Assembly: GCA_963709285.1 (NCBI GenBank)
Contig: CAVPVR010000002.1
Location: forward strand, 65,491-129,490
Direction of reading: 5' to 3'
Source: an uncultured delta proteobacterium
Lineage (GTDB): Bacteria > Desulfobacterota > Desulfobaccia > Desulfobaccales > 0-14-0-80-60-11
Length of the DNA stretch: 64,000 nt
Shown: positions 9,772-46,721 of the stretch, one piece after another
How the letters are laid out: every line of letters starts with the position of its first letter
How positions within the stretch are numbered: position 1 is the stretch's first letter
Made by a program: the position numbers and the translations under genes
The notes under the pieces: generated by a model
The model's input: only the letters and a program-made list of their open reading frames with translations
Told to the model about the DNA's origin: nothing
The model's database searches: none

Positions 9772-9780
9772 GACAACGGT

Positions 9781-30832: not shown

Positions 30833-33800
30833 ATGGCGTTGGTCCGGCCCCTGTCGCAGGTTGTCAGTTCCCGGGTGATGGTGGTGGGCGGGGGCATCGC
30901 GGGTCTTACCGCGGCCCTGGACCTGGCCGCAGTGGGTCTTCCCGTCACCCTGGTGGAGGAAGGTCCTTCCCTGGGGGGCCTGATGGCCCAGTTGGACAAG
31001 ACCTTTCCCACCAACGACTGCGCCATGTGCATCCTGGCGCCCCGGCTGCTGGAAGCGGCCCGGCATCCCCTGATTGAGATCCATACTCTGACCCGGGTAA
31101 TGGGGATGGAGGGACAGCCCGGGGATTTTAGGATACACTTGGCCCGCCGGCCGCGGTACGTGGACCCGGCCAAATGCACGGGTTGCGGGGAATGCGTCCG
31201 GGTTTGTCCCAAACGCATTCCCGACCCCTACAACCTGGGACTCAAGCCGGACCAAGGCCATCCACGTGCCCTTCCCTCAGGCGGTGCCGCAGGCGGCCTA
31301 TATCGACCCGGAGGCCTGCCGCCACCTGCAGGGGCGCGAGGAAACCTCCTGTGTTCAGGTGTGTTCGGCGGGAGCCATCAACTTTGCAGACCAGCCGGAA
31401 ATCTTTGTGAAGGAGGCCGGGGCCGTTATTCTGGCGCCTGGGGCCCGGCCCGCGCCGGTGCAGGACTTTCCCGGGGCCTGGCACCCGGATGTAGTCACCA
31501 GCCTGGAATTCGAGCGGCTGCTGAGTGCCACCGGTCCTCATGAAGGCAAGCTGCTGCGGCCCTCAGACCAGCAGGAGCCCCAGTCCATAGCCTATATCCA
31601 GTGTGTGGGGTCCAGGGACCAGGAGGCGGGCGCGGCTTATTGTTCCAGTCTTTGTTGCTTGTCCAGCCTGAAAGAGGCCCTGGTGGCCCAGGAGCTTACC
31701 CAGGACCGGGCCGCGACCACCATTTTTTACCTGGACCTGAGGGCCCAGGGCAAAGAGCAGGAGCGCTATCTGGAGACGGCTCAGGCCCGGGGGGTCGAGC
31801 TGGTGAGGTCCCGGGTCACTGCGGTCCACCCGCATCTGAAGGGTGGCCTGGCGGTGCGCTACACCGACCCCCGAGGCAGGCCCCAGGAGAGGATTTTTGA
31901 CTTGGCGGTCCTGGCGGTGGGACTCAGGCCGGCGGCGCACCTGCGGGATTGGGCCGGGCGGCTCGGCATAAGTCTCAACGAACACGGATTTATCAAGGAA
32001 GGGCAGCCTTTTTCTCCGGTTACGGGGCGGGAGGGCGTTTATCTTTGCGGCACGGCCCAGGAGCCCATGGACATTACCCTGTCCGTGGCCAACGCCAGCT
32101 CGGCGGCTCAAGCTGCAGCCCAACTCCTGGCCGTGAGCCCCCGGCCTGCCCTGGCCAGGGTGTCACGGGAAAAGCCGCTGAGCACCGATGGGCGCCCCCC
32201 GAAAATCGGGATTTTTCTCTGTCATTGCGGCACCAACATCGCGCGCACCGTCGATCCGGAGGCCTTGAGCAAGATGGTCCGGGAAATCCCCGGGGTGGCC
32301 CACGTGGAGGATTTCCTCTTCAGTTGTTCGGCGGACGCCACCCAAAAGATGGCGGCCATCATAGAGGAGCAGGGTTTGAACCGGGTGGTGGTGGCCGCGT
32401 GCAGCCCCCGCACCCACGAGGCCGTCTTTCGGGAGGTGCTGGCTGCAGCCGGGCTAAATCCGGGGTATCTCGCCTTCGCCAATATCCGGGAGCAGTGCGC
32501 CTGGGTGCACCAGGATGACCCGGACGCGGCCCTGGCCAAAGCTGCAGACCTGGTGGCCATGGCGGGGCGCGGGGCCCTGGAACTGGCCCCCATCACTCCC
32601 GCCACGTATCCGGTGATGCCCCGGGCCCTCGTTTTAGGAGGCGGGGTGGCCGGTATGAGCGCCGCCCTTTCTCTGGCCGACCAGGGCTTTCACACCTATC
32701 TGGTGGAACGCACTCCCCGACTGGGGGGGCTGGCCCGCAACCTGCGCTTCACCCTGGAAGGGTTAAATCCCCTGGAGTTAATCCAGGCCCTCGAAAATGC
32801 AATCTCCTGGCACCCCAACGTGGAAGTGCTCACCCAAACCGAACTGGTGTCCCTGGAGGGTACTGTGGGGCGCTTCCGGTCCCGGGTCCGCCAGTTGATA
32901 CAGGAAGAATGGGAGGAGAGGCGCCTGGAGCATGGGGTGGTGCTGGTGGCCACGGGTGGCCGGGAAATGCAGCCCGAGGGGAGCTATCTTTACGGTGAGG
33001 ACCCCCGAGTGCTCACCCAACTGGAACTGGAGGAGAAGATCAGCACCGGCGGCAAAGATCTGGACCGGGCACGGCGGGTAATCATGATTCAATGCGTGGG
33101 TTCCCGTTCTCCCGAGCGCCCTTACTGCAGCCGCTTGTGCTGCACCGAAGCCCTGAAAAACGCCCTTCTCCTCAAAAAGCGTTATCCCCTGGTGGAGATC
33201 GTTGTCCTCTATCGCGACATCCGGGCCTTTGGCTTCCGGGAATTGGCCTACCAGGAGGCCAAGGAGCGGGGCGTGGTCTTTATTCCCTACGACCCGGACC
33301 GGCCCCCGGAGGTGAGCGCGTCTCGGCGGCGGCCGTTGACAGTGCGGGTCTGGGACGAACTTTTAGAAGAGACCGTGACCTTGCCGGCGGATTTTCTAGT
33401 CCTGAGCGCCGGCATCGAACCGGCGGCGGGGAGCGGCAAGGCGGCCCACCTGCTCAAGGTGCCGCTGGCCACGGGCGGCTTTTTCCTCGAGGCCCATCAG
33501 AAACTCAAACCGGTGGAAACCATGGTGGATGGGGTCTTTATCTGTGGCCTGGCCCACTACCCCAAGAGCCTGGGAGAGGCGGTGGCCCAGGCTCAGGCGG
33601 CGGCCATCCGGGCCGCGGCCCTCCTCTTTCAGGAGGAAATCCAACAGAGTGAAATCTCTGCTATCATACTGAGCGAGAACTGCCAATTATGTCTTGCTTG
33701 TGTGAAAAGTTGTCCTTTTGCAGCCATTGTTGTGGGTGAGGGGGGAATACCCCAAATTATGGGAGAACTCTGCCGGGGCTGCGGGGTCTGCGCTGCGGAG

Positions 33801-33929
33801 TGCCCCGCCGGCGTCATTCGGATGAGCCGTTTTACCGACGCCGAGTTGACCGCCCAGATCATGGCTGCCCTGGAGCGTCCCCAAGGAGAGGAACATGGTG
33901 AGAGAGAGCTATTGCGGTCTGTGCGATGA
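30833..33929 (+). CDS. hdrA: Double-length HdrA-like flavoprotein (two FAD-binding modules plus ferredoxin domains), interrupted by a 1-nt frameshift near 31247
   Basis: GxGxxG appears twice (VVGGGIAGLTAAL, VLGGGVAGMSAAL), along with CVGSRD motifs and C-terminal CxxCxxCxxxCP clusters. Track ORFs 30833-31543 and 31266-33929 join as NLGLK(R)TKAIHVPFPQAVPQ if one C of CCGG is dropped. Compare the paralog sequence NLGLKSRKCIRIIFAQAVP. Confidence 0.75.
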
Positions 33930-34323
33930 CTGCCAGTTGGGCCATCCTGAATTCCTCAAGGCTGTGGCCCTGTTACAGGAATATCTGGACCGCTTTCGGG
34001 CCAACTGGTGGGTCCACTGTTTTCCGGAGAAGGAGGGCTTTAACTTCCCGGAATTCCGGCGAGGGTTGGACTGGTTTTTAGCGCACACGGAGTGCCCGGG
34101 CTGCAAAGGGGGTAAGGGATTGGAACTCTGCCCCATCCGGACTTGCGCCGTGGCCCGCGGGCTGGCGCACTGCTCCCTCTGTCCGGATTTGGTTCCTTGT
34201 GACAAGTTTGACCACCTGCTTGAGCAGTTCCCTGACGTGAAGATCAGCCTGCGCCGCCGTCAGTTGAAGATCAAGGCCATACATTTTCACCAGCAGTTAG
34301 CCGCCATAAAAAAGGAAGGCTGA
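33895..34323 (+). CDS. DUF3795-like Cys-rich protein
   Basis: N-terminal YCGLCDDCQLG and later CPGCKGG...CPIRTC...CSLCPDLVPC motifs. Confidence 0.5.
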   Translation: MVRESYCGLCDDCQLGHPEFLKAVALLQEYLDRFRANWWVHCFPEKEGFNFPEFRRGLDWFLAHTECPGCKGGKGLELCPIRTCAVARGLAHCSLCPDLVPCDKFDHLLEQFPDVKISLRRRQLKIKAIHFHQQLAAIKKEG

Positions 34324-34356
34324 GGGGCCTGACCCGGTTTTGCCGAGTTATTTCCC

Positions 34357-35211
34357 ATGAAAACGTTGGTCCACAAGCGTGAAACCAGAAGCGCCATTGA
34401 ATTGACCCTCCGGATGTACCAGGAGCTGGTAGAGCTGCGCCTGGACAAAACGGCCTGCCTCAAGTGCGAGGTCTGCTCCCTGGTCTGCCCTCGGGGGGCG
34501 GTGGCCGTCACGCCTGCTGACGAGGGCCTGGATATCACCATTGATCCCCGCGTCTGCGTGCTCTGCGAAATTTGCGCCCACTTTTGCCCTACAGGAGCGG
34601 TGAGCTTGAGGCTCAACGGCGTCCCCAAGACTATTTTATTCGACCATCTGGGTCTGGCGGCCTTTTTGGACAAGATCAGGATGGACAAGGAAAGGTGCAC
34701 CGAGCCCTGCCCCCAGGATGAAAAAGGGCAGGAGCACTGGTGCCGGCAGCAGCTGAAGCTGGTGGGAGGCCTGCTCACGGAGTGCCCCAAACACTGCCAC
34801 AAGTGCCTGACTGTGTGCCCCCGTCAGGCCATTGTCCTGGACCCGGAGGGCCTGCACACCATGCCCGAGCCCGACCTGTGCCTGCGCTGCACCCAATGTC
34901 TCTCGGTGTGTGAACAGGAAGCCCTGGCGGTCAACCCCCAGTTCACTGGCGACCTTGACATTGACGACAGCAAGTGCCCGCCGGACTGTATGCTGTGCAT
35001 CGAAGCCTGTCCCGTTAAGGCCATCGTGCGGGAAGGGGAGCGGGTCTACCGGAAGTTAGAAACTTGCAGCTACTGTGGGGTGTGCTACAACATTTGTGAT
35101 TACGAAGCCGTTAGCCTAACCCGGCGGCAGGTGGTGGCCCTCAAGGGGGAATTTTCCCAAGCCTGGGAAGAGGCGGTGAACCGGCTCCTCTCCCGGGAAA
35201 TGGTTCGATAA
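34357..35211 (+). CDS. Polyferredoxin (six 4Fe-4S-type motifs; MvhB/FwdF-like)
   Basis: CLKCEVCSLVCP, CVLCEICAHFCP, CHKCLTVCP, CLRCTQCLSVC, CMLCIEACP, CSYCGVCYNIC. Confidence 0.8.
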   Translation: MKTLVHKRETRSAIELTLRMYQELVELRLDKTACLKCEVCSLVCPRGAVAVTPADEGLDITIDPRVCVLCEICAHFCPTGAVSLRLNGVPKTILFDHLGLAAFLDKIRMDKERCTEPCPQDEKGQEHWCRQQLKLVGGLLTECPKHCHKCLTVCPRQAIVLDPEGLHTMPEPDLCLRCTQCLSVCEQEALAVNPQFTGDLDIDDSKCPPDCMLCIEACPVKAIVREGERVYRKLETCSYCGVCYNICDYEAVSLTRRQVVALKGEFSQAWEEAVNRLLSREMVR

Positions 35212-35235
35212 GTTGCGTTAAGCAAAAAGGCGTTT

Positions 35236-37599
35236 GTGGAACCTGAACTTCGCATCGGCTTATATATCTGTCACTGCGGCCTCAATATCGCCGGGGTCAT
35301 CAGTCCGGAGGCCCTGTCGGTTCAGGGGCAGGGGCTCCCTGAGGTGGCGGTCAGTCGCCATCATTTGTACACCTGCTCCGAAGCCGGCCAAGCCGAGATT
35401 CTGAAAGACATCAAGCACTTTAAGCTTGATCGGGTGGTTATTGCCGCCTGTTCACCCAAGCTTCATGAAGTCACCTTCCGCCGGCTGCTGTCGGAAGCGG
35501 GGCTGAATCCCTACCTGGTGGAAATGGTGAACATCCGGGAGCACTGCGCCTGGGTGCACGCCGGGGAGCCGGAGGCGGCCCAGGAAAAGGCGTTGGAGCT
35601 CATCCGCATGGGGCTAGCCAAGGCGTGTCTGGCGGTCCCCTTGCAAGACCGCCAGGTGCCCATGACCAGGCATGCCCTGGTTATTGGCGGAGGCCCAGCG
35701 GGACTGCGAGCCGCCCTCGATATTGCCCATGCCGGCTACCCCGTAACCCTGGTGGAACGGGAGCCCATCCTAGGGGGCATGGCCAACCGGCTGCATCGCA
35801 CCTTTCCCCGGGGGGAAAGCGCCCTGGCCCTGATCAATCCCCTCATGGCTGCGGTGGCCCTGCATCCCGGCATCCAGGTGCTCACCCAGAGCGAGGTCAC
35901 CGAGGTGAGCGGGCATTTGGGGGAGTTTGCCGTCACGGTGCGGGAGACCCTGCCCCTGGTGGGGGAGGCCTGCGACCGCTGTGGGCACTGTGCTGAGGTC
36001 TGTCCGGTGGTGGTTCCCGATACCGTGGCCGCAGGTCTTGGCACCCGGACTGCCATCTATCTGCCGGCCCCCCATGCTTTTCCCGGCCGCTATGTGGTGG
36101 ATCTGGAGCACTGCGACCGCTGCGGCGAGTGTATAGCTGCCTGTCCCCAGGAGGCCATCAGCCTGGAGGAAGGGGAACGAGAGCATCACCTCACCGTGGG
36201 GAGCATCGTGGTGGCCACGGGCTTCACTCTCTTTGATACGGCGGGGAGCCGCTATGAGAACTGGGCTGACCATCCGGGAGTTGTCACCACGGTGGCCCTG
36301 GAGCGCCTTCTGGCGGGGGCAGGACCCACCCAGGGAAAGGTAAGCCTTGCCGATATTCCAGAAGAGGTGCGGGATGTGGCTTTTCTGCTGTGCGTGGGCT
36401 CCCGGGAGGAGGAGGGCAACCGTTACTGCTCCCGGGTGTGCTGCCCCACGGCCTTGAAGCAGGCCCTGGAGCTGAAAAAACGCCTCCCGGAGGCCCGCAT
36501 TCGTATCTATTACCGGGACATCCGCACCAACAAAAAAGACTGGGAGGCCCTTTACACCGAGGCCCGGGAAGCGGGGGTGCTGTTTTTGCGGGGGCGGGTG
36601 GAGGAAGTAAAAGCCGCCCAAGATGGGGGCCTGCTCATTCGTGCCTTTAACGAGACCTTTCAGGTTCCCACCGAAGACCGGGTGGACCTGGCGGTCCTGG
36701 CCGTGGGCATGGTCCCCGGGAACGGCGCCGCTCTCCGGGAGGTGTTGAAGCTGCCGGTGGGACCGGACGGCTTTTTCATGGAGGCCCACCCCAAGCTCAA
36801 GCCCCTGGAGACGGTGCTGGACGGCATTTTTCTGGCCGGGGCCTGTCAGGGTCCCAAGGACCTGGCCGAATCCTTCACCCAAGGAAGCGGCGCGGCCGCC
36901 AAGGTTCTGGCCCTCTTTGCCCACGAGACCATCACCCTGGACGGCCTGGTGGCCCAGGTGGACCCGGAGGTCTGTGTGGGCTGCGGGGAATGCGCGGCAG
37001 CCTGTCCGTTTCAGGCCATGGAGATGGTGGGGGAGGAAGAAAAGCAGCAGGCCCAGGTAGTTACTGCAGCCTGCAAGGGCTGTGGGGTCTGCGCCGGCGC
37101 CTGTCCTACGGGGGCGGTCATCCCCGCGGGGTTTACGGACGAGATGATCCTGGCTCAGATCGACGAGGCCTTGGCGGAGGCTCCGGAACAGAAAATTTTG
37201 GCCTTTTGCTGCAACTGGTGCTCTTATGCCGGGGCGGACTTCGCCGGGGTGTCGCGGCTGGCCTATCCCCCCCAAGTGCGCATTATCCGAACCATGTGCT
37301 CTGGCAGGATTCACCCCAAGTTTATCCTCCATGCGTTTGAGCGGGGCGCCGGCCAGGTTTTGATCTCCGGTTGCCACCCTCCGGGGGAATGCCATTATAT
37401 TTCTGGAAATCTTAGGGCTCAGGAGCGGGTGGAAAAGCTCCGGCCCAAACTTGCCAAAAAAGGCATCGACCCTTCCCGCCTGCGGCTGGCGTGGGTTTCA
37501 GCCACGGAAGGGAGGGCATTTCAACGGGTCATTGAAGAAATGGCCGCGGCCCTGGAGCCTGAAGAGACGGTCAAACAAGCGAGCGGTCAGGGGAAATGA
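35236..37599 (+). CDS. hdrA: HdrA-like flavoprotein fused to a C-terminal MvhD-like domain
   Basis: LYICHCGLNIAG N-terminal cluster, VIGGGPAGLRAAL FAD motif, CVGSRE, ferredoxin motifs, and a C-terminal ILAFCCNWCSYAGAD...ISGCHPPGECHY (MvhD signature). GTG start. Confidence 0.85.
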   Translation: MEPELRIGLYICHCGLNIAGVISPEALSVQGQGLPEVAVSRHHLYTCSEAGQAEILKDIKHFKLDRVVIAACSPKLHEVTFRRLLSEAGLNPYLVEMVNIREHCAWVHAGEPEAAQEKALELIRMGLAKACLAVPLQDRQVPMTRHALVIGGGPAGLRAALDIAHAGYPVTLVEREPILGGMANRLHRTFPRGESALALINPLMAAVALHPGIQVLTQSEVTEVSGHLGEFAVTVRETLPLVGEACDRCGHCAEVCPVVVPDTVAAGLGTRTAIYLPAPHAFPGRYVVDLEHCDRCGECIAACPQEAISLEEGEREHHLTVGSIVVATGFTLFDTAGSRYENWADHPGVVTTVALERLLAGAGPTQGKVSLADIPEEVRDVAFLLCVGSREEEGNRYCSRVCCPTALKQALELKKRLPEARIRIYYRDIRTNKKDWEALYTEAREAGVLFLRGRVEEVKAAQDGGLLIRAFNETFQVPTEDRVDLAVLAVGMVPGNGAALREVLKLPVGPDGFFMEAHPKLKPLETVLDGIFLAGACQGPKDLAESFTQGSGAAAKVLALFAHETITLDGLVAQVDPEVCVGCGECAAACPFQAMEMVGEEEKQQAQVVTAACKGCGVCAGACPTGAVIPAGFTDEMILAQIDEALAEAPEQKILAFCCNWCSYAGADFAGVSRLAYPPQVRIIRTMCSGRIHPKFILHAFERGAGQVLISGCHPPGECHYISGNLRAQERVEKLRPKLAKKGIDPSRLRLAWVSATEGRAFQRVIEEMAAALEPEETVKQASGQGK

Positions 37600-39218
37600 T
37601 AACCAAGACCCAAGTTCTCTTGTGCGCCTGCCCGGACCTCAAGGTGGAGGTCCAGAACTTGGCCCAACGCCTCTCCCAGGCCGGGCTGAGGGTCGAAGTA
37701 TCCCCGCCTCTCTGCACCCCCGCGGGTTTGGAGGAATGGGGGCCACGCCTGACGGCCGAACCCCGGGAGTGGCTGGTGGCCGCGTGCGGACCGGCACAGC
37801 ATCACGGCCTTTTTCAACGTCTGGCCGGGGATGAACCTCTGGCCATGGTGGATCTCCTAGCCGCAGACGATCTGGAAAGCGCTGTGGCAGCCGTCCTCCT
37901 GGCCCAAAAGGAGGAAATTCGCCTGGTTTCCGCGGGCGCACCCCACAGCCGGGAGGTGCTGGTGGTGGGGGGCGGGGTGGGGGGCTGTCAGGCCGCCCTG
38001 GACCTGGCCAATGCCGGTTTCAAGGTACATCTGGTGGAATCCTCCCTCTCCATCGGTGGCACCATGGCCCAGTTGGACAAGACCTTTCCCACGCTGGACT
38101 GCTCCATCTGCATCCTGGGACCCAAGCTGGTGGAAGCCGCGGCCCACCCCTTGATTGAGCTCCTCACCTTTGCGGAAATCACCGGCATTTCCGGCCAGGC
38201 CGGGCGATTTACGGTGGATGTGACCCTGAAGCCCCGCTATGTGGACATGAGCCGGTGTGTGGGCTGCGGCAGTTGCGTCCAGGTCTGCCCGGTCATTGTT
38301 CCCAGTCGCTGGAACCTGGGGCTCAAGTCCCGCAAGTGCATCCGCATCATTTTTGCGCAGGCGGTGCCCCTTATGGCCACTATCGAAAAAGAATACTGCA
38401 TCGACTGCCAGATGTGCCTTGAGGCCTGTGAACACGGGGCCATTCACCCTTTGTCCCGCCCGGAGGAACGGCGCCTCGAGGTGGGGGCGGTGGTTCTGGC
38501 TACCGGGGCCCGGCCCTTTGACCCGGCCATTCAGAGTGAATACAGTTATGGCCGTCTCCCCGGGGTCCTCACCAACCTGGAGTTCGAGCGCCTGGTGTGC
38601 GCCACCGGTCCTACTCAAGGACATCTCCTGACCCCCGCCGGGCAACCGGTGAAGCGTCTGGCCTTCATCCAGTGTGTGGGCTCCCGGGACCGGCGCTTCC
38701 TGCCCTACTGCTCGGGCTACTGCTGCACTGCGGCCATCAAGCAGGCCATGCTGACCCTGGAGCATGAACCCGACGCCGAGGTCACCATCTTTTTCAACGA
38801 CATCCGCACGTCGGGGAAGGGCTTCGAGGAACTCTATTTGCGGGCCCAAGCCGCGGGAGTGCGCTTTACTAAAGGTCTGCCGGGGCGTATCGAGGCGGGG
38901 GAGGCTGGCAGCCTCATAATCATTTATGAAGATCAGCAAGGCGGCCAGCGGGGCCGTCTGCCCGTGGACCTGGCGGTCCTGTCCGTAGGCCTGACCGCAC
39001 CCCGGGAGGGACTCCCCTTCACAGAGATCGGGCCGGTGCGGGACAACCTGGGATTTTATGACAGCCGGCACCCGATCCTTCATCCCCTGGAGTCCACGGT
39101 GCCGGGAGTCTTTCTGGCCGGCACCGCCCAGGGGCCCCGGGATATTTCTGAAACGGTGTGCACCGGCAGCGGGGTTGCGGCCCGGATCATCAACCTGCTC
39201 AATTCTCTGCCCCAGTAG
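37596..39218 (+). CDS. hdrA: HdrA-like flavoprotein (third paralog, with a distinct N-terminal extension)
   Basis: VVGGGVGGCQAAL, DKTFPTLDCSICIL, CVGCGSCVQVCP and IQCVGSRD motifs. Its start overlaps the upstream stop (ATGA). Confidence 0.8.
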   Translation: MITKTQVLLCACPDLKVEVQNLAQRLSQAGLRVEVSPPLCTPAGLEEWGPRLTAEPREWLVAACGPAQHHGLFQRLAGDEPLAMVDLLAADDLESAVAAVLLAQKEEIRLVSAGAPHSREVLVVGGGVGGCQAALDLANAGFKVHLVESSLSIGGTMAQLDKTFPTLDCSICILGPKLVEAAAHPLIELLTFAEITGISGQAGRFTVDVTLKPRYVDMSRCVGCGSCVQVCPVIVPSRWNLGLKSRKCIRIIFAQAVPLMATIEKEYCIDCQMCLEACEHGAIHPLSRPEERRLEVGAVVLATGARPFDPAIQSEYSYGRLPGVLTNLEFERLVCATGPTQGHLLTPAGQPVKRLAFIQCVGSRDRRFLPYCSGYCCTAAIKQAMLTLEHEPDAEVTIFFNDIRTSGKGFEELYLRAQAAGVRFTKGLPGRIEAGEAGSLIIIYEDQQGGQRGRLPVDLAVLSVGLTAPREGLPFTEIGPVRDNLGFYDSRHPILHPLESTVPGVFLAGTAQGPRDISETVCTGSGVAARIINLLNSLPQ

Positions 39219-39297: not shown

Positions 39298-39672
39298 ATG
39301 TCGGATATTCAGATAAAACCGGAAGAACAACCGAAAAAATTACAAAAACCCTTGCCCCTGGTCCTGGAGATCATTCCCGGGCAGGCCGGGGAGGGGCTCG
39401 TGGTGGTAATGGAGCCAGGGAGCTACGAGGGCAGCACCCTGAGGGAGCTCTGTGATCAGGCTTTGAGCCGCCCCGACTTCAGCATCGAGGAGCGCCAGAT
39501 TTTAGAGGACATCCAGCGGCAGCTTCAGGGTGGCAAGCTCCTTTGCCAGGGCCGGGACCTCGACGGACCCGCCCAGGTCTTCGGAACCGTTGAGGAGACG
39601 GAAGCCGGGGAGGCTTATCTTTATGTGCCTGTCCGGGCCATCAAGCCTCAGGAGGGGGGCCTCTTCCCTTAA
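39298..39672 (+). CDS. Ubiquitin-like (beta-grasp) protein candidate with C-terminal GG followed by LFP
   Basis: 124 aa from the ATG at 39298, with a GGAAAGG RBS 8 nt upstream. It shows a beta/alpha alternation compatible with a beta-grasp fold, ends ...YLYVPVRAIKPQEGG-LFP, and sits in an operon with E2-like, JAB and E1 genes. Confidence 0.5.
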   Translation: MSDIQIKPEEQPKKLQKPLPLVLEIIPGQAGEGLVVVMEPGSYEGSTLRELCDQALSRPDFSIEERQILEDIQRQLQGGKLLCQGRDLDGPAQVFGTVEETEAGEAYLYVPVRAIKPQEGGLFP

Positions 39673-39675
39673 GGA

Positions 39676-40878
39676 ATGGGAACGGGAGCGGGGATGTGGA
39701 GGTGTTTTGAAGCCGACCTGGAAATCCTGGTGCACCGGGGCCACCTGTACCTTCCCCTGGTTTTAGATCCAGAGATCAACCAGGAGATTCAGGCCCCGAT
39801 TTCCCCAAGTTATTCGTGGGATCAATCGCCCGGCGGGCTCAGCCGTTCACCGGTGCCTACGGTCCTGGCTGTCCTGGATAGATGGTTCGTCCAGGCGGTG
39901 AGCGCTTCCTCCCTGGTTGACAACTACGCCCAGCTTTTTCCCCAAGACCACGAAGACCGCCGGCGGACTCTCCGTGAACAATACTCTCTGACCGCGGACC
40001 TCTTTGGGGTGGCCCTGGACCCCCACCTGGTCGCCATCGTTTTTCACATTTTACCCCATTTTCTCAGGCGGGATGGATTTCAGAGACGGCGGCGCTTACA
40101 GGAGGGGGAGGTCCTGGATTTCATCCGGGAGCGAGTCCAGGTGCCCCACTACTTCGACCAACAAGCGCGGAGTTTCCTGGATGTCAATCCTCTGAAGGAG
40201 GCCCTCCGGCGCCTGGAAACCGTTCATCTTGAGCCCAAACCACCTCCAGAGGGATTGGTGCCGGCAGCCGATCTGGGGGCCTGGTGGGAGGAGGTCCTAA
40301 CAGCCCAACTTCTGGCCGAGGAGCGCAACCGCCTCTTCCAGGAGATCGAGGAACGGGAGCACTGGGCCACGGCTCAGGAAAGTCGTCTGGCGGTTCTGCT
40401 CTATTTAGCTCAAAAAGGGTCCCTGGAACTGGACGGCTTCGGGTTCTCCCGGATGAGGCGGGGCCAGGATTACCGGGTTTACAAGCGCACCGGGCCCTAT
40501 GCCCTCCAGGACTTTTATGGCCATTTGTACCTCTTCCCGGATTGCCGGGTGGCGGTCACCACTTTGGGGCGCCTGCGGCCCGTGGTGGTGGATCACTATA
40601 AGCACCCGTTCCTGAGAAGGTACGCTTCTGGCCAGGAAATCTGCATAGGTCCCGAAAGCAGTAATCTTTCTTTTTCGGCAAAAAACGCCATCCAGGTCCT
40701 GGAGGAAGGGATCAACGCGCTCTTGTACAGCTACGACGGCCGGCACCGCGCCGGCTACCACAGACTGTTTGTGCTGCCGGGGATGATGCGACTGGTGGAC
40801 TTCGAAGACATTCGCATCCCGAAGGACCACCCCCTCATCGTCTCAGGGAAAGTGGAAGTGAAGAACCGGGCCACCTGA
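39676..40878 (+). CDS. E2/UBC-like protein candidate with a large N-terminal extension
   Basis: The C-terminal region YLFPDCRVAVTTLGRLRPVVVDHYKHPFLRRYASGQEICIGPES...AIQVLEEGINALLY mirrors the UBC layout (FP..., HPN-like HPF, G-x-x-I-C-[LI], following helix). The candidate catalytic Cys323 codon is at 40642-40644. Confidence 0.45.
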   Translation: MGTGAGMWRCFEADLEILVHRGHLYLPLVLDPEINQEIQAPISPSYSWDQSPGGLSRSPVPTVLAVLDRWFVQAVSASSLVDNYAQLFPQDHEDRRRTLREQYSLTADLFGVALDPHLVAIVFHILPHFLRRDGFQRRRRLQEGEVLDFIRERVQVPHYFDQQARSFLDVNPLKEALRRLETVHLEPKPPPEGLVPAADLGAWWEEVLTAQLLAEERNRLFQEIEEREHWATAQESRLAVLLYLAQKGSLELDGFGFSRMRRGQDYRVYKRTGPYALQDFYGHLYLFPDCRVAVTTLGRLRPVVVDHYKHPFLRRYASGQEICIGPESSNLSFSAKNAIQVLEEGINALLYSYDGRHRAGYHRLFVLPGMMRLVDFEDIRIPKDHPLIVSGKVEVKNRAT

Positions 40879-40879
40879 C

Positions 40880-41287
40880 ATGGACCTTAAGGACTCTTTT
40901 CGCCGGGACCGGCTTCGGGGGAAGGAGAAGGAGCCCTGGGCCCCCTCCCTGTTCTCTCAGGTCGGAGGGCTGGTGCGGCGTCATCGACTGGGAGAGGCAT
41001 TTTGTCAGCTTCTCGGGCAGATGACTACGGCAAGTGCGGAAACCTTAGCGCAGACCCACCGATCTGCTCCCAAGGCCCCTTTCGAGCCACCCCTGTTTTT
41101 TTTGGCCACCGCAGAGGATTATCAGGTGATTCAGAAAATTCTCTCGGGCCTAAACAACCCCTACCTGGCTTGGGCCTGCAGTCCGGAGGAAATTCTTCTG
41201 TCGCCAACCCTGTGGAGCCGGCGTCCCGGCCTTGACCCAGAGGTGCTGGCCACCCACCACTTTGCGGCGTTGCTTTTACATGATTAA
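40880..41287 (+). CDS. Hypothetical protein of the Ubl operon
   Basis: 135-aa ORF starting 1 nt after the upstream stop. No family recognised. Confidence 0.5.
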
Positions 41288-41289
41288 AT

Positions 41290-41340
41290 TTGAGAGGAGG
41301 GCTGGGGGAGCGCGGCTCCCCCACTCTCCCCCCAAAAAAC
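41290..41340. repeat. G/C-tract hairpin repeat copy
   Basis: GAGAGGAGGGCTGGGGGAGCGCGGCTCCCCCACTCTCCCCCC is palindromic and lies between the 135-aa gene and the clpX-like gene. Confidence 0.5.
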
Positions 41341-41364
41341 CTGTTCACATCACAAGGAGTACTC

Positions 41365-42468
41365 ATGCCGAATGGCATAACTGATGAGAAGCGGCGGCGC
41401 CTCGAAGAAAAGATGGAGCAGTTTCGGGAACGTCAGATAGACGAGGCGGTGCAGCACATCCTTGAATTCGACAAGACTCCTACGACCCTGAAGGCCGAAG
41501 TGGACCGGTTCGTCATCGGCCAGGAGAAGGGGAAAAAGATTATCGCCACGGCCATCGCGTTCCATTATAAGCGGCTGGGTGCCGCGTTGAAGCGCACCTT
41601 GGGAGAACACAACGGCAGCATCGAGAGCGCCCTCAAGAGCACCCGTACCCCCAAGGCCAACATCCTCATGGTGGGTCCCACCGGGTGCGGCAAGACCTAC
41701 ACCAGCGAGACCGCCTCGGAGCTGGTGGGGGTGCCCTTCGTGGTAGAGGACATGACCAAGTTCAGCGAGGTGGGCTACGTGGGCATGAATGTCAGCGACA
41801 TCCTGGTGGACCTCCTCATCTCCGGAGACGGCAACCCGAATGTGGCCCAGATGGGTATCGTCTACCTGGACGAAGTTGACAAGATTGCCGCCGAGACCTC
41901 CACCGTCCGGGATGTTTCGGGGAAGGGAGTCCAGAAGGGTCTTCTCAAGCTGGTGGAGGGGGTGGACAACACCCTGGAGATCGGCAAGGAGCGTTTCTCT
42001 CTTTCCACCAAGCACGTGCTGTTTATTGCCGGGGGGGCTTACGACAGCCTGGAAGGCATCGTCAGGAAGCGCCTGGCCCGCCTGAATGTGACGGGCGACT
42101 GGCGGGACCACCTGGCCACCGAGGACCTGGTTTCCTTCGGTATGGAGCGCCAGCTTGTGGGCCGCTTCCCGGTCCGGGTGGTGTATGATCGCCTCACCAC
42201 CCAGGAACTCCAGGACATCCTGACCAAGAGCGCCGACAGTCCCCTCCGGGCTTACGTCCAGGACCTGGAAAGCTGGGGCATCGACCTGAAATACACCGAG
42301 GAGGCCCTGGGGGAGATCGCCCGCCGGGCCAAGCGGGAGGGCACCGGGGCCCGGGGACTGGTGGGCATCCTCCACCGGGTGCTGCTCGAGGACATGTTCC
42401 GCCTACCCGGCAACTACACGGGAGAGCTCATGATGGACGGAGCCTACATCCGGGAGAAACTGGGATGA
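41365..42468 (+). CDS. ClpX-like AAA+ unfoldase lacking the Zn-ribbon, RKH and IGF (ClpP-docking) elements
   Basis: VIGQEKGKK, Walker A GPTGCGKT, pore loop GYVG, Walker [30 protein letters not shown], and sensor region GARGL. There is no N-terminal C4 domain and no GIGF motif. A CAAGGAG RBS precedes the ATG at 41365. Confidence 0.85.
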
Positions 42469-43262
42469 GGTTCAAGGCCCTCAAGGACCTGAGCCGGACG
42501 GCGCCCCAGGAGATTGTGCTGGCCTCTCTCCCGGAGCAGGTCCTGATGACGGACTTTGCCAAAGCCAAGGCCTTTGCGGTGAGTGAACTGGTGCGCCGGG
42601 TGCATGGGGAGGCGTTCGAGTGGTACGGCTTCACCCTGGCGGAGCGGGCCCGGCCGGAGGTCATCGTGGATGTGGGGCTTCCCGAAAACGACGAGAACCA
42701 GGAGACTTACACCAGCATCAGCCCGGAACGTATTGCAGCTTACCAGGAAACCCTACCGGCCGGGCAGATAATCAACGGCTGGCTCCACTCCCACGGCGCT
42801 CTGGAGTACCGTCAGTTCTCCCCGGTGGACGACCTCAACCAGGCGACGGTGCTGGACTACGTCACTTCCCTGCTCAAGATGCCCGTGGCCAAAAAGGAGG
42901 TGGTGATCCGGGATTTGACCTTCCTGTTGTTGGATGAGGAGGAGGCCGCAATCCAGGCCGCAGGCAGCGTCACCCTCCTCACCGATGTGCCGGTGGGCCG
43001 GGCCAAACTCCTGGAGACCATTTATGGGGGCTTCTGCTTCGGCATGGTCATCGGTGACAAAGGCTGGACCAAACAGGAGATCCATTACAAAACCCGGGGC
43101 GTCCTCACCGGCGAGACCCTGGTGAGCAAACGGGAAGCCGACCTGACCCTGGTGGCAACCGGGAAAAACCTCACGACCTCGGACCTGGAGGCCCTGGAAC
43201 TGGAGGTCAAGGAACGTATCCGACCCATTACCTATACCCCGGAAAAGCTGGAGCGGGGGTAG
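42465..43262 (+). CDS. JAB/MPN+ (JAMM) metalloprotease-like protein
   Basis: Upstream Glu (GEAFEWYGF) and [18 protein letters not shown] (H-x-H-x8-S-x2-D, one residue longer than the canonical x7), encoded at 42786-42830. Its start overlaps the clpX-like stop (ATGA). Confidence 0.7.
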
Positions 43263-43432
43263 GGGGAAAGGCAAATTAAAGTATCACTGGAATGTTGGGG
43301 TTGATTTGGTAATTGCATTTTTTTCTTTTCCCATATCTAAAAAGAATTTTTATATCTAATTTATTCTTTTAGATTTTGTTTAGATAGTTAAAATATACTA
43401 GAAGTTACTAAAAAGATGATGGTACTAACTTC

Positions 43433-44431
43433 ATGATTGAGTCTTGCGTATGGCGCCGCCTTTGTCGTCCCGAGGTTGGGATTCCGAACTCGATAAGTGA
43501 TCTGATTGCCCGGGAAGAATGGCTGAAAGGGGATTTTTTAACTTCCGTACGTATGGGGCCAACACTATTTATAGCGAGTGATTATGGTGGAGCGCACAAG
43601 GGTGCTGTATATGAGACCCTCTCGTTTCTCATGGCCGACTTGACATATGTTTGGTTATTTGACGAATTGCGTACAAAGCTACGCAATGAAGCGGTTCTAA
43701 AAAGTCGCCGTATGGCATACAAATCTTTAGGCGACCGTCGGAGACAAGAAGCACTTGTGCCGTTTCTTCGATCGGGTAACACGATCCCGGGACTTCTAAT
43801 GAATATTGTATTAGATAAAAACGCCTCCCAATTACTTTCAGAATCCTATCAACCTAAATTTGCCTTTGGCGAACTTAGCCATTGGTGTAAAGGGTCCTTT
43901 GAAAAACTCACGCGCGTTGGACAACTGGGAGCGATGCTTGTTGAGGGAATGTGCGCTCCAGGTCAGAATGTATTATGGATTTCTGACGAAGATGAGATAG
44001 CGCCAAACAGAGAGAAGTTGTTTGAGGCAACTAACGTTTTAGGCCATTACCTGAATCATTTCTGTTCTAATCAGATGGGGCACATGAGATTTGGAACTAC
44101 AAACGTGGACAATGGCAACCTCCGAATTGAAGATCTTGTCGCGCTCGTTGATCTTGCAGCTGGATGCCTCTCGGAGATCTTTACGCAAACGATGAAACTG
44201 TTTGGAAGCCCTGCAAGCAAAATCCTTATACCTGGGACGCACTCGTCATCTAAGAAAGCAAGAATTATTGCAAATTGGATGGCCCAGGGTAATCATCCTC
44301 TGAAGAAGCTAATCGTGTTGGTTGAAGCTCAAAATAATTCTTATATCACGAAAGTCGTAAACTTTTATCCAGAAGGCACAACAAACATTTTCGACTGGGT
44401 AGCCGATTTCGAGGAGTTGCTCAGAAATTGA
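43433..44431 (+). CDS. Hypothetical protein on a low-GC insertion
   Basis: 332-aa ORF, visibly AT-richer than its neighbours and preceded by a 170-bp AT-rich spacer. No family recognised. Confidence 0.6.
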   Translation: MIESCVWRRLCRPEVGIPNSISDLIAREEWLKGDFLTSVRMGPTLFIASDYGGAHKGAVYETLSFLMADLTYVWLFDELRTKLRNEAVLKSRRMAYKSLGDRRRQEALVPFLRSGNTIPGLLMNIVLDKNASQLLSESYQPKFAFGELSHWCKGSFEKLTRVGQLGAMLVEGMCAPGQNVLWISDEDEIAPNREKLFEATNVLGHYLNHFCSNQMGHMRFGTTNVDNGNLRIEDLVALVDLAAGCLSEIFTQTMKLFGSPASKILIPGTHSSSKKARIIANWMAQGNHPLKKLIVLVEAQNNSYITKVVNFYPEGTTNIFDWVADFEELLRN

Positions 44432-44497
44432 CTACTTCTAACTCTTTGAATTGTTTGACGTTTTAATATGTTAGCATCTTAGCGTTAGAATGTGAGT

Positions 44498-44728
44498 ATG
44501 AAGAATTCACCGAAACGAGCCACCATCTACTTCGAATCCGACCTGCACCGGGCCTTACGGGTGAAGGCGGCGGAGGTGGGCCAGTCGATGTCCGAACTGG
44601 TCAATCAGGCGGTGAAGCTTTCCTTGGCCGAGGACGCTAAGGATATAGCGGCCTTCGAGGAGCGCCAGCACGAACCCAGCCTGCCCTTTGAGGACGTCCT
44701 GAAAGACCTCAAGATAGGGAAGGGCTGA
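44498..44728 (+). CDS. Ribbon-helix-helix (CopG/antitoxin-like) protein, orphan
   Basis: KRATIYFESDLHRALRVKAAEVGQSMSELVNQAV is a typical RHH beta-strand plus two helices. No adjacent toxin ORF is seen. Confidence 0.7.
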   Translation: MKNSPKRATIYFESDLHRALRVKAAEVGQSMSELVNQAVKLSLAEDAKDIAAFEERQHEPSLPFEDVLKDLKIGKG

Positions 44729-44734
44729 GAGCAA

Positions 44735-44820
44735 GTCCCCCTTTGACAAAGGGGGATTTAGGGGGATTTTCGAGGGGTCAGGAAAAATCCCCTGACCCCC
44801 CTTTATTAAAGGGGGGGATT
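44735..44820. repeat. Family A nested-palindrome element, copy 2 (inverted)
   Basis: Its reverse complement aligns with 45058-45140 and 29466-29549 (…CCCCCTAAATCCCCCTTTgtcAAAGGGGGAC). Confidence 0.8.
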
Positions 44821-44852
44821 TTAAGCATAGGATATGCTAAGGAGCATTAAGG

Positions 44853-45041
44853 ATGGCAGAGCATTGGTGTAAAACCTGCTTTTTCAGAGGCCAATATGAC
44901 AAAAACCCCCAGTCATTGTTGGGGAGATTGTGGAAATGGCATGCCAACTGGTGCCCGGGCTGGAAATCCTACATGAGATCCATCCCGGATGAGGAACGCC
45001 TGGAATTAGCCGAAAAATATGATTTACCCAAATTCAGGTGA
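44853..45041 (+). CDS. Hypothetical small CxxC protein
   Basis: 62 aa reading MAEHWCKTCFFRG...WCPGW, with an AAGGAG RBS upstream. It is bracketed by inverted family A repeats. Confidence 0.45.
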   Translation: MAEHWCKTCFFRGQYDKNPQSLLGRLWKWHANWCPGWKSYMRSIPDEERLELAEKYDLPKFR

Positions 45042-45057
45042 AGCGACTGCCTATTTA

Positions 45058-45140
45058 CCCCCCTTTCTTAAAGGGGGGGTAGGGGGGATTATGTAAGGCT
45101 TTGATAATCCACCTAAATCCCCCTTTAGAAAAGGGGGACT
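45058..45140. repeat. Family A nested-palindrome element, copy 3
   Basis: Near-identical to 29466-29549 in the same orientation. Confidence 0.8.
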
Positions 45141-45218
45141 TTCAAAGTTCAATCCTGAAGTGACTCAGATAATGAGCCTGGTAATTCATGGAACACTACA
45201 TTAGCTGACTAAACCATT

Positions 45219-46721
45219 GTGACCTTGCCTGAAAACACCTATTTATCCCGGGATGAAGCAACTCCGGACGAGCGCCTGGACCGGCAGGTGCGCATTCCGG
45301 GGTGGAACCAGGAGGCGTTGGCCCAGGCCCGGGTGGGGGTGGTGGGAGACGACCCCTGGCTCACTGGCCTGGTGGTGACTTCGGCTGCGGCCCTGGGAAT
45401 CAACCGGCTGACGGTGGTGGCCCCGGACCTGGACCCCCGCTTGCTCTCGGCGACCCGGGGGCTTAATCCGGAGTTCAACCTTGCCTGGTTCCCAGGCTTT
45501 TTCAGCCATTCCCTCCTGGAGGACCTGCTCCGGGAATGCACCGTCCTGATTGACCTGGGCCACCACGGCCTGGCCACCAAGCTCCTCCTCAATCTGGCCC
45601 AAAGGAAAGGTCTCCCCCTGGTGCGGGCGTCTGACTTTGAGGAGGATGGGGTGGCGGGCCTCAGGCTCTTCACCTATCAGCCAGGCCGGGAATGGCGGGA
45701 ACTCCTGGAAGTGCTTCCTCAAGCCCAACTTCCTTCCCGGTGTCAGGGCGACCCGGTGCTGGCTCTGGTCACGGTGGGGCTGGTTCTCGAGGAAACCAAA
45801 AAGCTCCTCCTGGGGGAGGCGGTAACACCGGAGGTGATCTCATACTCTCGGGCCAGCTTAAAGACATTTAATTTGAGGGAGAGGGCTAGGGGCCGTGAGC
45901 CCCTACCCCCTCCCTCAAACTCCCTCCCCCAACCCCTTAAGGGGGAGAGAAATGCTGTAAAGTCGGGGCAAGCTGCCCCGACTTTACAAGCACATTGCGG
46001 GATGGGAGGGGGGCTTGATGGGAAGAAAGGGACCGGTAGCATGGGCTTCCAGCCCGTGGCACCCTGGCCTTACCCTCATGAGCTCATTTTTCTGGATTCC
46101 CCCATCGCGGTGGTGGGCGCCGGGGCCCTGGGGAACTTTGTGGCGTTGGGGTTGGCCGCTCTGGGCTTCACCCGCCTCACCTTTATCGATCCGGACCCGG
46201 TGGAGGTCACCAATCTGAACCGTCAGGTTCTCTTCTGGGACGCCGTGGGACAGCCCAAGGCCGAGGCGTTAGCAGAAAAAATCAAGGAGTGGTTCGGGGT
46301 GGCGGTCAGGGCTGACACGACATACATCACCCGGGAGACTGACTTGCGCGAGTTTGCCGTGGTGTTCGACTGCACGGACAATTTTGCCAGCCGCATTATC
46401 CTGAGCGAAAAGTGCCGGGAATATGGCCAAATCCTCATCAGCGGCGGCACCGGGGTGGAGGCCGGACAGGTAGTGGTCTTCGACCCCGCGCAAGGCGGCC
46501 CCACCCCCGCAGAGCTTCTGGGGCTTTATGACATCGTGGGACAGCGTGACATCGACGTCAAAGAGCGGGAACGGGCCTCCTGCGTCTATGCCCCTGAAGC
46601 CGCCATAATCATGACCAACCAGATCGTCGGGGGCCTTATGGTGGACACCCTGAGAAGACTGCTTACGGGAGAGCCGGCACCCAACCTCTTCTACGACGCC
46701 CGGAGTGAAAGGATGATTTAG
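45219..46721 (+). CDS. E1-like (ThiF/MoeB/UBA family) activating enzyme with a degenerate N-terminal and an intact C-terminal adenylation domain
   Basis: The C-terminal half, IAVVGAGALGNFVALGLAALGFTRLTFIDPDPVEVTNLNRQVLF...FDCTDNFASR, is a classic ThiF fold. The N-terminal half has a Rossmann-like layout but a degenerate loop (VGVVGDDPWLTG). GTG start. Confidence 0.8.
   Translation: MTLPENTYLSRDEATPDERLDRQVRIPGWNQEALAQARVGVVGDDPWLTGLVVTSAAALGINRLTVVAPDLDPRLLSATRGLNPEFNLAWFPGFFSHSLLEDLLRECTVLIDLGHHGLATKLLLNLAQRKGLPLVRASDFEEDGVAGLRLFTYQPGREWRELLEVLPQAQLPSRCQGDPVLALVTVGLVLEETKKLLLGEAVTPEVISYSRASLKTFNLRERARGREPLPPPSNSLPQPLKGERNAVKSGQAAPTLQAHCGMGGGLDGKKGTGSMGFQPVAPWPYPHELIFLDSPIAVVGAGALGNFVALGLAALGFTRLTFIDPDPVEVTNLNRQVLFWDAVGQPKAEALAEKIKEWFGVAVRADTTYITRETDLREFAVVFDCTDNFASRIILSEKCREYGQILISGGTGVEAGQVVVFDPAQGGPTPAELLGLYDIVGQRDIDVKERERASCVYAPEAAIIMTNQIVGGLMVDTLRRLLTGEPAPNLFYDARSERMI
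45873..46062. repeat. G/C-tract hairpin repeat modules inserted in frame inside the E1 gene
   Basis: TTGAGGGAGAGGGCTAGGGGCCGTGAGCCCCTACCCCCTCCCTCAAACTCCCTCCCCCAACCCCTTAA matches the intergenic element at 57548-57616. It also contains the hairpin AAAGTCGGGGCAagcTGCCCCGACTTT and a GGCTTCCAGCCCGTGGCAC motif. Confidence 0.7.

Follow-up and report, generated by a model that had tools for sequence, protein, structure and literature searches.

How a bacterial ubiquitin-like conjugation system might be equipped with an unfoldase of its own is the question raised by a cluster of six genes on contig CAVPVR010000002.1 of an uncultured delta proteobacterium (assembly GCA_963709285.1), which we analysed within a stretch of 64,000 nt (positions 65,491 to 129,490 of the forward strand; hereafter the window). 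An earlier note, made from the letters of the window alone, had read this cluster as a ubiquitination-like conjugation module joined to a ClpX-like ATPase, a reading that proved largely right, none of the refuting conditions named in the note having been borne out. According to the list of open reading frames, all six genes are co-oriented on the + strand of the window and encode, in this order, a ubiquitin-like tag precursor (the tag), a probable E2-like protein (P400), a conserved partner protein (P135), a paralog of the AAA+ unfoldase ClpX (the ClpX-like ATPase), a JAMM metallopeptidase (JAB) and an E1 enzyme. To our knowledge, no studied bacterial ubiquitination-like operon (CBASS Cap2/3, Bil, Bub) has its own unfoldase. 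On balance, we favour the reading that the locus is a ubiquitin-like conjugation and deconjugation operon that is vertically inherited, probably housekeeping in nature and provided with its own, peptidase-free AAA+ unfoldase.

This reading is supported by the conservation of the gene set, which was followed from two directions: a forward test seeded with P400, in which one genome per species was scanned and 80 genome loci were obtained, and a reverse test seeded with the ClpX-like subfamily in metagenomes, for which the best 80 of 305 relatives, all at least 64% identical, were used. The gene set recurs in both the 80 genome loci and the 80 metagenome loci (individual loci are designated here by L numbers), a recurrence that is far beyond chance. 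Placing the window proteins on these loci by tblastn revealed a common order of tag, P400, P135, ClpX-like ATPase and JAB nearly everywhere, whereas the position of the E1 gene varies between the two ends of the cluster, behind JAB or ahead of the tag. Amongst the 45 genome loci with adequate flanking DNA, 38 contain the complete set of six, and these cover at least five phyla; the ClpX-like gene is found in 39 and P135 in 43 of these 45. In the reverse test JAB lies directly after the ClpX-like gene in 64/66 metagenome loci and P135 precedes it in 61/62, whilst P400 is present in 41/41 and all five partners in 18/19. The neighbourhood check that the earlier note had suggested has thereby been run, and the ClpX-like gene stands almost always next to JAB, E1 and P400 from both directions.

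The arrangement of the genes in the window is equally compact: stop-to-start spacings from the tag through P400, P135 and the ClpX-like gene to JAB are 3, 1, 77 and -4 nt, and the open reading frames as well as the spacings of 3, 1 and -4 nt that had been given previously are borne out by the list. The start of JAB overlaps the stop of the ClpX-like gene by 4 nt (ATGA), and since the same 4 nt overlap occurs in 57/64 loci, it suggests that the ClpX-like ATPase and JAB are translationally coupled and produced at a fixed stoichiometry. P400 possesses 149 homolog clusters in a large protein database, none of them annotated, and relatives in 97 species of the one-genome-per-species scan. Most carrier species belong to the Thermodesulfobacteriota (Desulfobaccales, Desulfobacterales, Syntrophobacterales and Desulfarculales), with further carriers amongst Methylomirabilota, Binatia, Acidobacteriota and Acidithiobacillales and one cultured carrier, Desulfoferrobacter suflitae DRH4; the distribution is largely lineage-consistent. 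Across phyla, homologs share 62-90% identity with the window protein in case of the ClpX-like ATPase, 53-90% for the tag, 45-85% for JAB and 35-72% for P400; for an accessory system, these values are high.

Table 1. Features of the six-gene cluster and of the JAB-E1 gap, in window positions (nt).
Feature	Position	Strand	Remarks
Ubiquitin-like tag precursor (tag)	39298..39672	+	124 aa; C-terminus IKPQEGGLFP
Probable E2-like protein (P400)	39676..40878	+	400-aa open reading frame; likely true start 39694 (394 aa)
Conserved partner protein (P135)	40880..41287	+	135 aa; no family or PDB sequence match
GC-rich hairpin	41289..41336	+	Inside the 77-nt gap 41288-41364 before the ClpX-like gene
ClpX-family AAA+ unfoldase paralog (ClpX-like)	41365..42468	+	367 aa counted from ATG
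JAMM/MPN+ (Prok-JAB) metallopeptidase (JAB)	42465..43262	+	265 aa; ~75-aa C-terminal extension
332-aa low-GC gene	43433..44431	+	Private to the window; probably inserted cargo, outside the system
Ribbon-helix-helix (RHH) protein	44492..44728	+	78 aa; apparent orphan antitoxin
Cys/Trp-rich small protein	44853..45041	+	62 aa; CxxC...WCPGW
Tandem-domain E1	45219..46721	+	500 aa; Pfam ThiF over residues 293-488

Curated libraries recognise two of the six window proteins, namely the ClpX-like ATPase and E1. The tag, P400, P135 and JAB are without a match in Pfam, NCBIfam, PADLOC and PHROGs, and a profile search of the tag, P400 and P135 against PDB sequences returned nothing significant. We therefore consider the proteins one by one, beginning with the tag, whose C-terminus is an invariant ...RAIKPQEGG followed by an unconserved tail of 0-25 residues across homologs; the tail is LFP in the window, and seven homologs terminate exactly at GG. 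In L012 and L018 (both 9144-9959) the frame of the tag runs past PQEGG into a GNAT acetyltransferase domain of ~150 residues, giving a product of 272 residues that, by its sequence, would be a precursor akin to ubiquitin fusions: from such a tag-GG-GNAT fusion, the free tag would be obtainable only by cleavage after GG. A tag-GNAT fusion is listed for L019 too. The C-terminal GG is thus predicted to be processable. In the AlphaFold2 model of the tag (pLDDT 83.9, core >90), the first ~20 residues are disordered and are followed by a beta-grasp-like core with the element order beta-beta-alpha-alpha-beta-beta-beta. The nearest folds in the PDB are Atg8/GABARAP, USP7-UBL, ZFAND1-Ubl, EccD-Ubl and a 2Fe-2S ferredoxin, all at E >= 0.1; all of the top matches are beta-grasp proteins, and none is significant. 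The fold check proposed at the outset accordingly returns a beta-grasp-like topology for the tag and, for P400, matches dominated by E2s, with single matches non-significant.

E1 is matched by Pfam ThiF (PF00899; 133.5 bits vs. a cutoff of 28.1) over residues 293-488 only; its top NCBIfam matches are ThiF/MoeB, all below cutoff, and amongst proteins of solved structure, MoeB, Uba4 and ThiF come nearest to it in sequence. Matches in PADLOC are limited to this protein, where 'E1-E2' (Cap2-type) models cover the ThiF core. The C-terminal adenylation domain keeps GAGALG, an invariant NLNRQ, DCTDN and SGG, and Cys455, which is at least 90% conserved and retained in the archaeal orthologs described below, occupies a crossover-loop position like that of C187 in MoeB. 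Judged by these motifs, E1 is predicted to be an intact adenylating enzyme with a candidate cysteine. The N-terminal Rossmann-like domain (~20-215) is degenerate, with its glycine motif now VVGDDP and its arginine finger lost; the two domains align end to end (hhalign E = 0.01, 168 columns), and ThiF matches the archaeal E1 of L089 twice. These findings bear out the degenerate N-terminal and intact C-terminal domains that had been described, and give modest support to a tandem of inactive and active adenylation domains. An inserted CYS domain, a rhodanese domain and a CxxC zinc site were not found in E1, the active adenylation domain of which comprises ~210 residues. A Pro/Gly/Ser-rich linker insert of ~75 residues (217-292; window 45867-46094) is clade-specific and missing from most homologs, which are 413-430 residues long.

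In case of JAB, the JAMM motif (E52, H108-S109-H110, x8, S119, x2, D122) is invariant in 33 sequences, the spacing from H-x-H to Ser being x8 instead of the usual x7, and in a weak match to the Rpn11-like structure 6fju (E = 1), the profile GW(I/L)HSHG...FS..D falls in register with GWYHSHPG...LS..D. Relatives found by profile search were only unannotated orthologs among the 120 matches listed. The window protein itself has no Pfam match; its archaeal ortholog in L088 (BLASTP 7e-35) matches Pfam Prok-JAB (PF14464) with 27.6 bits vs. a cutoff of 25, and the proteins of L085 and L089 also pass. Membership of the window JAB in Prok-JAB is hence transitive, because the ortholog passes and the window protein does not. 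The JAMM protein of the earlier note stands with a complete motif, by which JAB is predicted to be a catalytically complete JAMM peptidase. In L090, JAB is fused to leucine-rich repeats.

The ClpX-like ATPase reaches 267 bits with the NCBIfam ClpX model, below its cutoff of 359, and matches Pfam AAA_2; in an alignment to solved ClpX structures, its AAA+ module is about 40% identical to canonical ClpX. Walker A (GPTGCGKT) and Walker B (DEVD), the pore-1 loop GYVG, the small domain as well as sensor and Arg motifs are all kept, so that motor and pore loop appear intact by their motifs. Although the window ATPase thus shares the AAA+ module and GYVG pore-1 loop with canonical ClpX (ClpXP), it fails three features of a ClpP partner: the N-terminal zinc-binding domain is missing, the RKH region is shortened by seven residues and does not contain RKH, and the IGF (ClpP-docking) site carries a deletion of 14 residues. 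The IGF loop is replaced by a short 'GDW' segment in 65/65 family members, which are 364-382 residues long; lacking this loop, the ClpX-like ATPase would therefore be unable to dock ClpP in the known way. The description of a ClpX paralog with Walker A/B and GYVG, lacking the zinc ribbon, RKH and IGF, is in this manner confirmed by structure-based alignment and across all 65 members. A second ClpX or accessory neighbour families were not found elsewhere in the window.

P400 comprises an N-terminal domain (~1-235) and a C-terminal part of ~165 residues; the latter is the conserved part, and FPDC290RV, YKH310PF and Q.IC323 are invariant in an alignment of 30 sequences. Database homologs in this alignment are 394 residues long and begin MWRCFE, and the true start of P400 is for this reason probably Met7 at 39694. 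Of the UBC-like layout that had been noted, HPF...Cys holds, whereas the spacing HPF-x9-GQEICIG does not: it is HPF-x6-GQEIC, that is HPF-x9-IC. The AlphaFold2 model (pLDDT 77.7) shows a helix, a beta-meander, a long loop with HPF and Cys323, and a long helix. When this model is compared with the PDB by Foldseek, E2s (UbcH5, Rad6, Ubc9, Ubc13, UbcH7, UBE2G2) make up about 35 of the top 50 matches, and each hhalign comparison of the C-terminal domain with seven eukaryotic E2s gives the same register, with HPF on HPN and Cys323 on the catalytic cysteine; that the E2 sequences were entered by hand is a caveat on the latter. The best contextual argument for an E2 is that P400-like genes always travel with the tag, JAB and E1, which they accompany even where the ATPase is absent. 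Several points speak against this assignment, however: the best Foldseek match has E 0.25 with TM about 0.35 and none is significant, the hhalign comparisons are non-significant (P = 0.04-0.1), Phe stands where the HPN motif of E2s has Asn, in a loop that is 3 residues longer than in UbcH5, and neither UQ_con nor Prok-E2 matches P400 in Pfam, NCBIfam or PADLOC at E <= 0.1. P400 is thus probably an E2-like conjugating enzyme and at the same time the weakest link, for which the evidence is weak but consistent. The alignment of P135 displays a conserved core in which a Cys/His or metal-binding motif is absent; P135 is possibly an adaptor.

The conserved part of P400 reaches well beyond the loci considered so far: a HMMER scan of 1.84 billion representatives gave 206 clusters, including proteins of 430-540 residues that share only the P400 C-domain, and the distant P400-like proteins keep YKHPF...Q.IC(L/M)G but not Cys290. 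Contigs of such distant proteins carry archaeal markers (L086, TFB; L088, aEF-1alpha and S10; L089, eIF5A, L37ae and prefoldin), and their operons run in the order small protein, P400-like protein, Prok-JAB, tandem ThiF E1 and a protein of 167-266 residues. The small proteins end in ...RPQEGG-YLC (L088), ...HDEGG plus a tail (L085), ...AEEGG-KGF (L089) and ...PHELG plus a tail (L086). A ClpX-like gene is located immediately upstream of JAB in L086 and L090 (hmmsearch 2e-111 and 6e-70, respectively). The core of tag, E2-like protein, JAB and E1 is ancient and common to both prokaryotic domains. As a separate observation, genes for a Ser/Thr kinase and for a CTP_transf_like nucleotidyltransferase adjoin the operons of L085 and L089.

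With these components, a cycle can be proposed in which the JAMM peptidase would trim the tail of the tag precursor and so expose Gly-Gly, the C-terminal domain of E1 would adenylate the tag, and the tag would probably pass to Cys455 and from there move to Cys323 in the E2-like C-terminal domain of P400. The N-terminal domain of P400 and/or P135 would select the targets, to the lysines of which the tag would be ligated; the ClpX-like hexamer would then engage tagged proteins and unfold or extract them, with the JAMM peptidase stripping and recycling the tag. The tagged proteins would thereby be remodelled, disassembled or handed over and not degraded by a protease partner of the unfoldase itself, since the operon encodes no such peptidase. 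Every step of this cycle is one that we infer, and the computed part consists of the gene set and its coupling, the GG-bearing tag and the predicted motifs of E1, the JAMM peptidase and the AAA+ protein; tag-directed unfolding with coupled tag removal appears to be the most likely function. More tentatively, and with rather less confidence than we would need to assert it, the system could be an ancient, non-defence tagging pathway of bacteria and some archaea with a new E2 family, in which the tag sends proteins to a ClpX-type unfoldase that is dedicated to the pathway, peptidase-free and equipped with its own Rpn11-like JAMM deconjugase, and which would thus represent an independently evolved counterpart of the proteasome regulatory particle or of Cdc48 for regulated unfolding, extraction or the disassembly of complexes, and not for proteolysis.

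Comparison with known systems shows how far such a pathway would be familiar. As in Bil (BilABCD), separate genes encode a Ubl with C-terminal Gly, an E2-type protein whose catalytic residue is Cys, a JAB/JAMM protein and an E1 with inactive and active domains; an E3 is absent from both, and thioester chemistry is likely. Unlike Bil, the tag, E2-like protein and JAB of the window are without PADLOC or Pfam matches, E1 lacks the inserted CYS domain and has its candidate Cys on the crossover loop as in MoeB/ThiF/UBA5, two further obligatory genes, for a ClpX-like AAA+ protein and a 135-residue protein, are added, a defence context is absent and the system is also archaeal. Bub (6E/DUF6527) likewise combines Ubl, E1 and E2 (plus JAB), and its BubAB fusion is paralleled by the tag precursors with GG-tail and GG-GNAT ends. 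Bub systems, however, form Ser/Tyr oxyesters in place of using catalytic cysteines, always include the DUF6527 serine protease BubE and have fused genes (PMC11601596), whereas the window cluster has the conserved Cys323 and Cys455, no DUF6527 match in any of its genes, separate genes and an AAA+ protein. It differs from type II CBASS (Cap2/Cap3) in that its genes are separate and not E1-E2 fused, with no CD-NTase nearby. Of the Bil/Bub-type assignment made originally, the likeness in working can therefore be kept and the family membership cannot: the system works like Bil, and membership of Bil, Bub or CBASS fails.

The pairing of an AAA+ unfoldase with a JAMM isopeptidase, here through overlapping genes, recalls the proteasome 19S particle (Rpt1-6 with Rpn11) and Cdc48/p97 with deubiquitinases, although the window ATPase falls into the ClpX/HslU branch and not that of PAN/Rpt/Cdc48, and has neither a peptidase chamber nor a docking loop. 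By analogy, this likeness would be one of function and, if real, is probably convergent. The Pup system (Pup, PafA, Dop, Mpa) also connects a prokaryotic tag with an AAA+ unfoldase (Mpa); Pup, however, is disordered and ligated by glutamine-synthetase-like enzymes, and PafA/Dop are not present in the window cluster. SAMP/UbaA/HvJAMM1 shares the E1, the JAMM peptidase and links to AAA+ proteins (PAN/Cdc48), but SAMP systems have neither an E2 nor an operon-encoded unfoldase. No description of a ClpX-like ATPase tied to an E1/E2/JAB operon was found in the open-access full-text literature, in agreement with the earlier note, which was aware of no described version with a dedicated AAA+ unfoldase; the only link of this kind in the survey of Iyer et al. 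2006 is one to ClpS, and AAA+ proteins are not mentioned there (PMC1779556).

A number of loci sit uneasily with a tagging operon built around an unfoldase. The ATPase is missing from L085, L088 and L089, which makes it an accessory of the conjugation core; the ClpX-like protein of L086 has the Glu of Walker B changed to Cys (DC for DE), and the JAB of this locus is without the second His. Partial sets are also found in the bacterial branch: at the locus, the ClpX-like ATPase, JAB and E1 are missing from L010 and L043, where only tag, P400 and P135 are encoded; L041 has P400, P135 and E1 without the tag, the ClpX-like ATPase and JAB; and L069 and L074 are without the ClpX-like gene. Furthermore, a target, an E3 or a peptidase could not be identified for the system. 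All of these findings count against the reading that we favour, and they are set beside the recurrence of the gene set described above; the unfoldase-JAB pair is a recurrent addition to the core, nearly universal in the bacterial branch. The doubts about P400 lead to the first alternative, tagging without an E2, in which E1 alone conjugates as in archaeal SAMP/UbaA, and P400 would serve as the principal substrate, as a scaffold or as the receptor of the ClpX-like ATPase. Such a pathway would account for the non-significant similarity of P400 to E2s, for the missing Pfam UQ_con or Prok-E2 match and for the Phe in place of the HPN Asn, yet the HPF...Cys motif and its spacing are invariant from bacteria to archaea while the rest of P400 diverges, independent methods give the same register as the E2 active site, and P400-like genes always lie with those of the tag, JAB and E1, also in loci that lack the ATPase; we consider it unlikely.

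A sulfur-carrier pathway, consistent linkage to which the earlier note had named as a refutation of its reading, would assign quite different roles to the same proteins: the GG protein would be a ThiS/MoaD/CysO-type carrier made into a thiocarboxylate by E1, JAB would mature the carrier or release the product (cf. Mec+/CysO, QbsD/QbsE), and the cysteines of P400 would relay sulfur to a metabolite or cofactor. The E1 is indeed nearest to MoeB, Uba4 and ThiF, a GG carrier with E1 and JAB is the known parts list of sulfur pathways (Iyer et al. 2006, PMC1779556), and the hosts are sulfur-metabolising anaerobes, with some loci abutting HdrA genes. Against this, no conserved gene for ThiG, MoaE, CysM, a rhodanese or a cysteine desulfurase was found in or beside the cluster (about 80 loci; window flanks), so that the check went against the pathway; E1 is without a rhodanese domain, the fold matches of P400 point to E2s, and neither the obligatory ClpX-type unfoldase coupled to JAB nor a 120-residue carrier with tag-GNAT precursor fusions would be explained. 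We thus regard a sulfur carrier as improbable. Anti-phage defence of the Bil, Bub or CBASS-accessory kind, in which phage proteins would receive the tag and the unfoldase would take assemblies of the phage apart, is suggested by the defence linkage of all characterised bacterial E1/E2/JAB/Ubl operons (PMC11601596), by the PADLOC 'E1-E2' (Cap2) matches over the ThiF core of E1 and by the mobile cargo (a toxin-antitoxin remnant and a low-GC gene) that the JAB-E1 gap collects in the clade of the window. On the other hand, PADLOC matches neither the tag, P400, P135 and JAB nor, as a whole-system model, the six proteins together; sequence conservation is very high with a largely lineage-consistent distribution; and regulators of the CapW/CapH/CapP type were not seen. 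The cluster is surrounded by genes of metabolism or housekeeping (Hdr, aldo-keto reductase, Pgi, glutamate synthase, ABC transporters), and no relative of the system was found on 2.9 million viral contigs, on which ground a phage origin was rejected as well. Defence therefore seems unlikely to us, and a housekeeping role is preferred over it because of the high conservation, the lack of a PADLOC system, the metabolic neighbours and the absence from viral contigs. A conjugation and deconjugation operon with its own unfoldase remains the reading that we favour.

Between JAB and E1, the cluster of the window is interrupted by a region in which GC falls from about 0.60-0.65 to 0.41-0.52 (43000-45200). 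The earlier note had taken this for a 2-kb low-GC insertion; the low GC is real, but the region is composite, and a single recent insertion was rejected given that the genes of the RHH protein and the 62-residue protein are common to close relatives and only the 332-residue gene is private. The latter (GC 0.43-0.47) is absent from 84/84 related loci, has no family match and is probably recently acquired cargo. The RHH protein gives weak RHH/RelB matches and a PHROGs match to an Arc-like repressor (1.8e-5), and its gene is followed by a terminator-like hairpin (44774-44799). In the relative L005 (14733-15213), a gene for a RelE/ParE-like toxin comes right after the RHH gene; since this toxin gene is missing in the window, the window RHH protein appears to be an orphan antitoxin. 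The gap of L005 also holds an unrelated gene of 242 residues. The 62-residue protein was found by tblastn at 66-77% identity in L005, L006, L008, L009 and L049 only, all Desulfobaccales-type relatives, and its gene is conserved just upstream of the E1 gene in these closest relatives. The JAB-E1 gap is an insertion hotspot.

Upstream of the ClpX-like gene, the GC-rich hairpin has a predicted RNA fold of -32.5 kcal/mol (z = -2.6) and is followed by an A-run, not a U-run; a canonical terminator was rejected on both strands, as the A-run and its absence from the terminator scan indicate, and a repeated element, as which it had originally been described, was rejected also, the hairpin being present as a single copy within the window. 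Upstream of the cluster, tblastn identified several paralogous HdrA-like genes (30863-39218). That the cluster lies directly downstream of these Hdr genes with no obvious terminator in the 79-nt gap was correctly seen: a site scan of the gap after the last HdrA-like gene found neither a terminator-like nor a sigma-70-like site. Of about 80 loci, 11 share the order HdrA-then-tag, all of them belonging to the lineages of the window, and a functional link between cluster and Hdr was rejected, the adjacency being lineage-specific.

Further genes accompany the cluster in some of its relatives. A seventh, small coiled-coil protein (~89-119 residues) is encoded in 31 of ~84 related loci (for example at L001 14839-15120, L015 4809-5078 and L014 5365-5697); it ends in ...LWGVPH(G) or ...LFxPPHG, and its gene adjoins that of E1 or lies between P400 and P135. 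A homolog of it is absent from the window and from the archaeal loci, and it has no Pfam family match. In 20 loci, a gene for a protein of ~410 residues with a metallo-beta-lactamase (MBL) fold and TPR directly adjoins the cluster (L011 430-1692, L014 2195-3430, L064 7700-8923, L047 14996-16219 and L052 5459-6670), the hosts being Binatia, Methylomirabilota, Acidobacteriota, Acidithiobacillales and some Desulfobacterales. Genes for two paralogous family-III CoA-transferases and for two small proteins lacking annotation are frequently found together with it. An MBL partner is the defining feature of the known '6A-MBL' E1/E2/JAB systems. A copy of the MBL-TPR gene was not found in the window, and in L038 P400 stands alone beside such a gene. 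Finally, L011 and L014 are two separate whole clusters in one Binatia metagenome-assembled genome (JBOHVJ01), which could reflect duplication or mixed strains.

Apparently, then, the cluster belongs to a conserved cellular pathway of environmentally important anaerobes, amongst them sulfate reducers, syntrophs, Methylomirabilota and Binatia, and a definition of its four unannotated families would give names to hundreds of 'hypothetical proteins'. If the proposed function is true, the tag would be the first bacterial ubiquitin-like tag to be read by a dedicated AAA+ machine, and the ClpX-like ATPase would be a natural, peptidase-free ClpX that shows what tag-directed unfolding alone achieves. 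P400 would at the same time introduce a new E2-like family, and the ATPase with JAB would offer a minimal AAA+-JAMM pair from which the origins of translocation-coupled deubiquitination might be approached.

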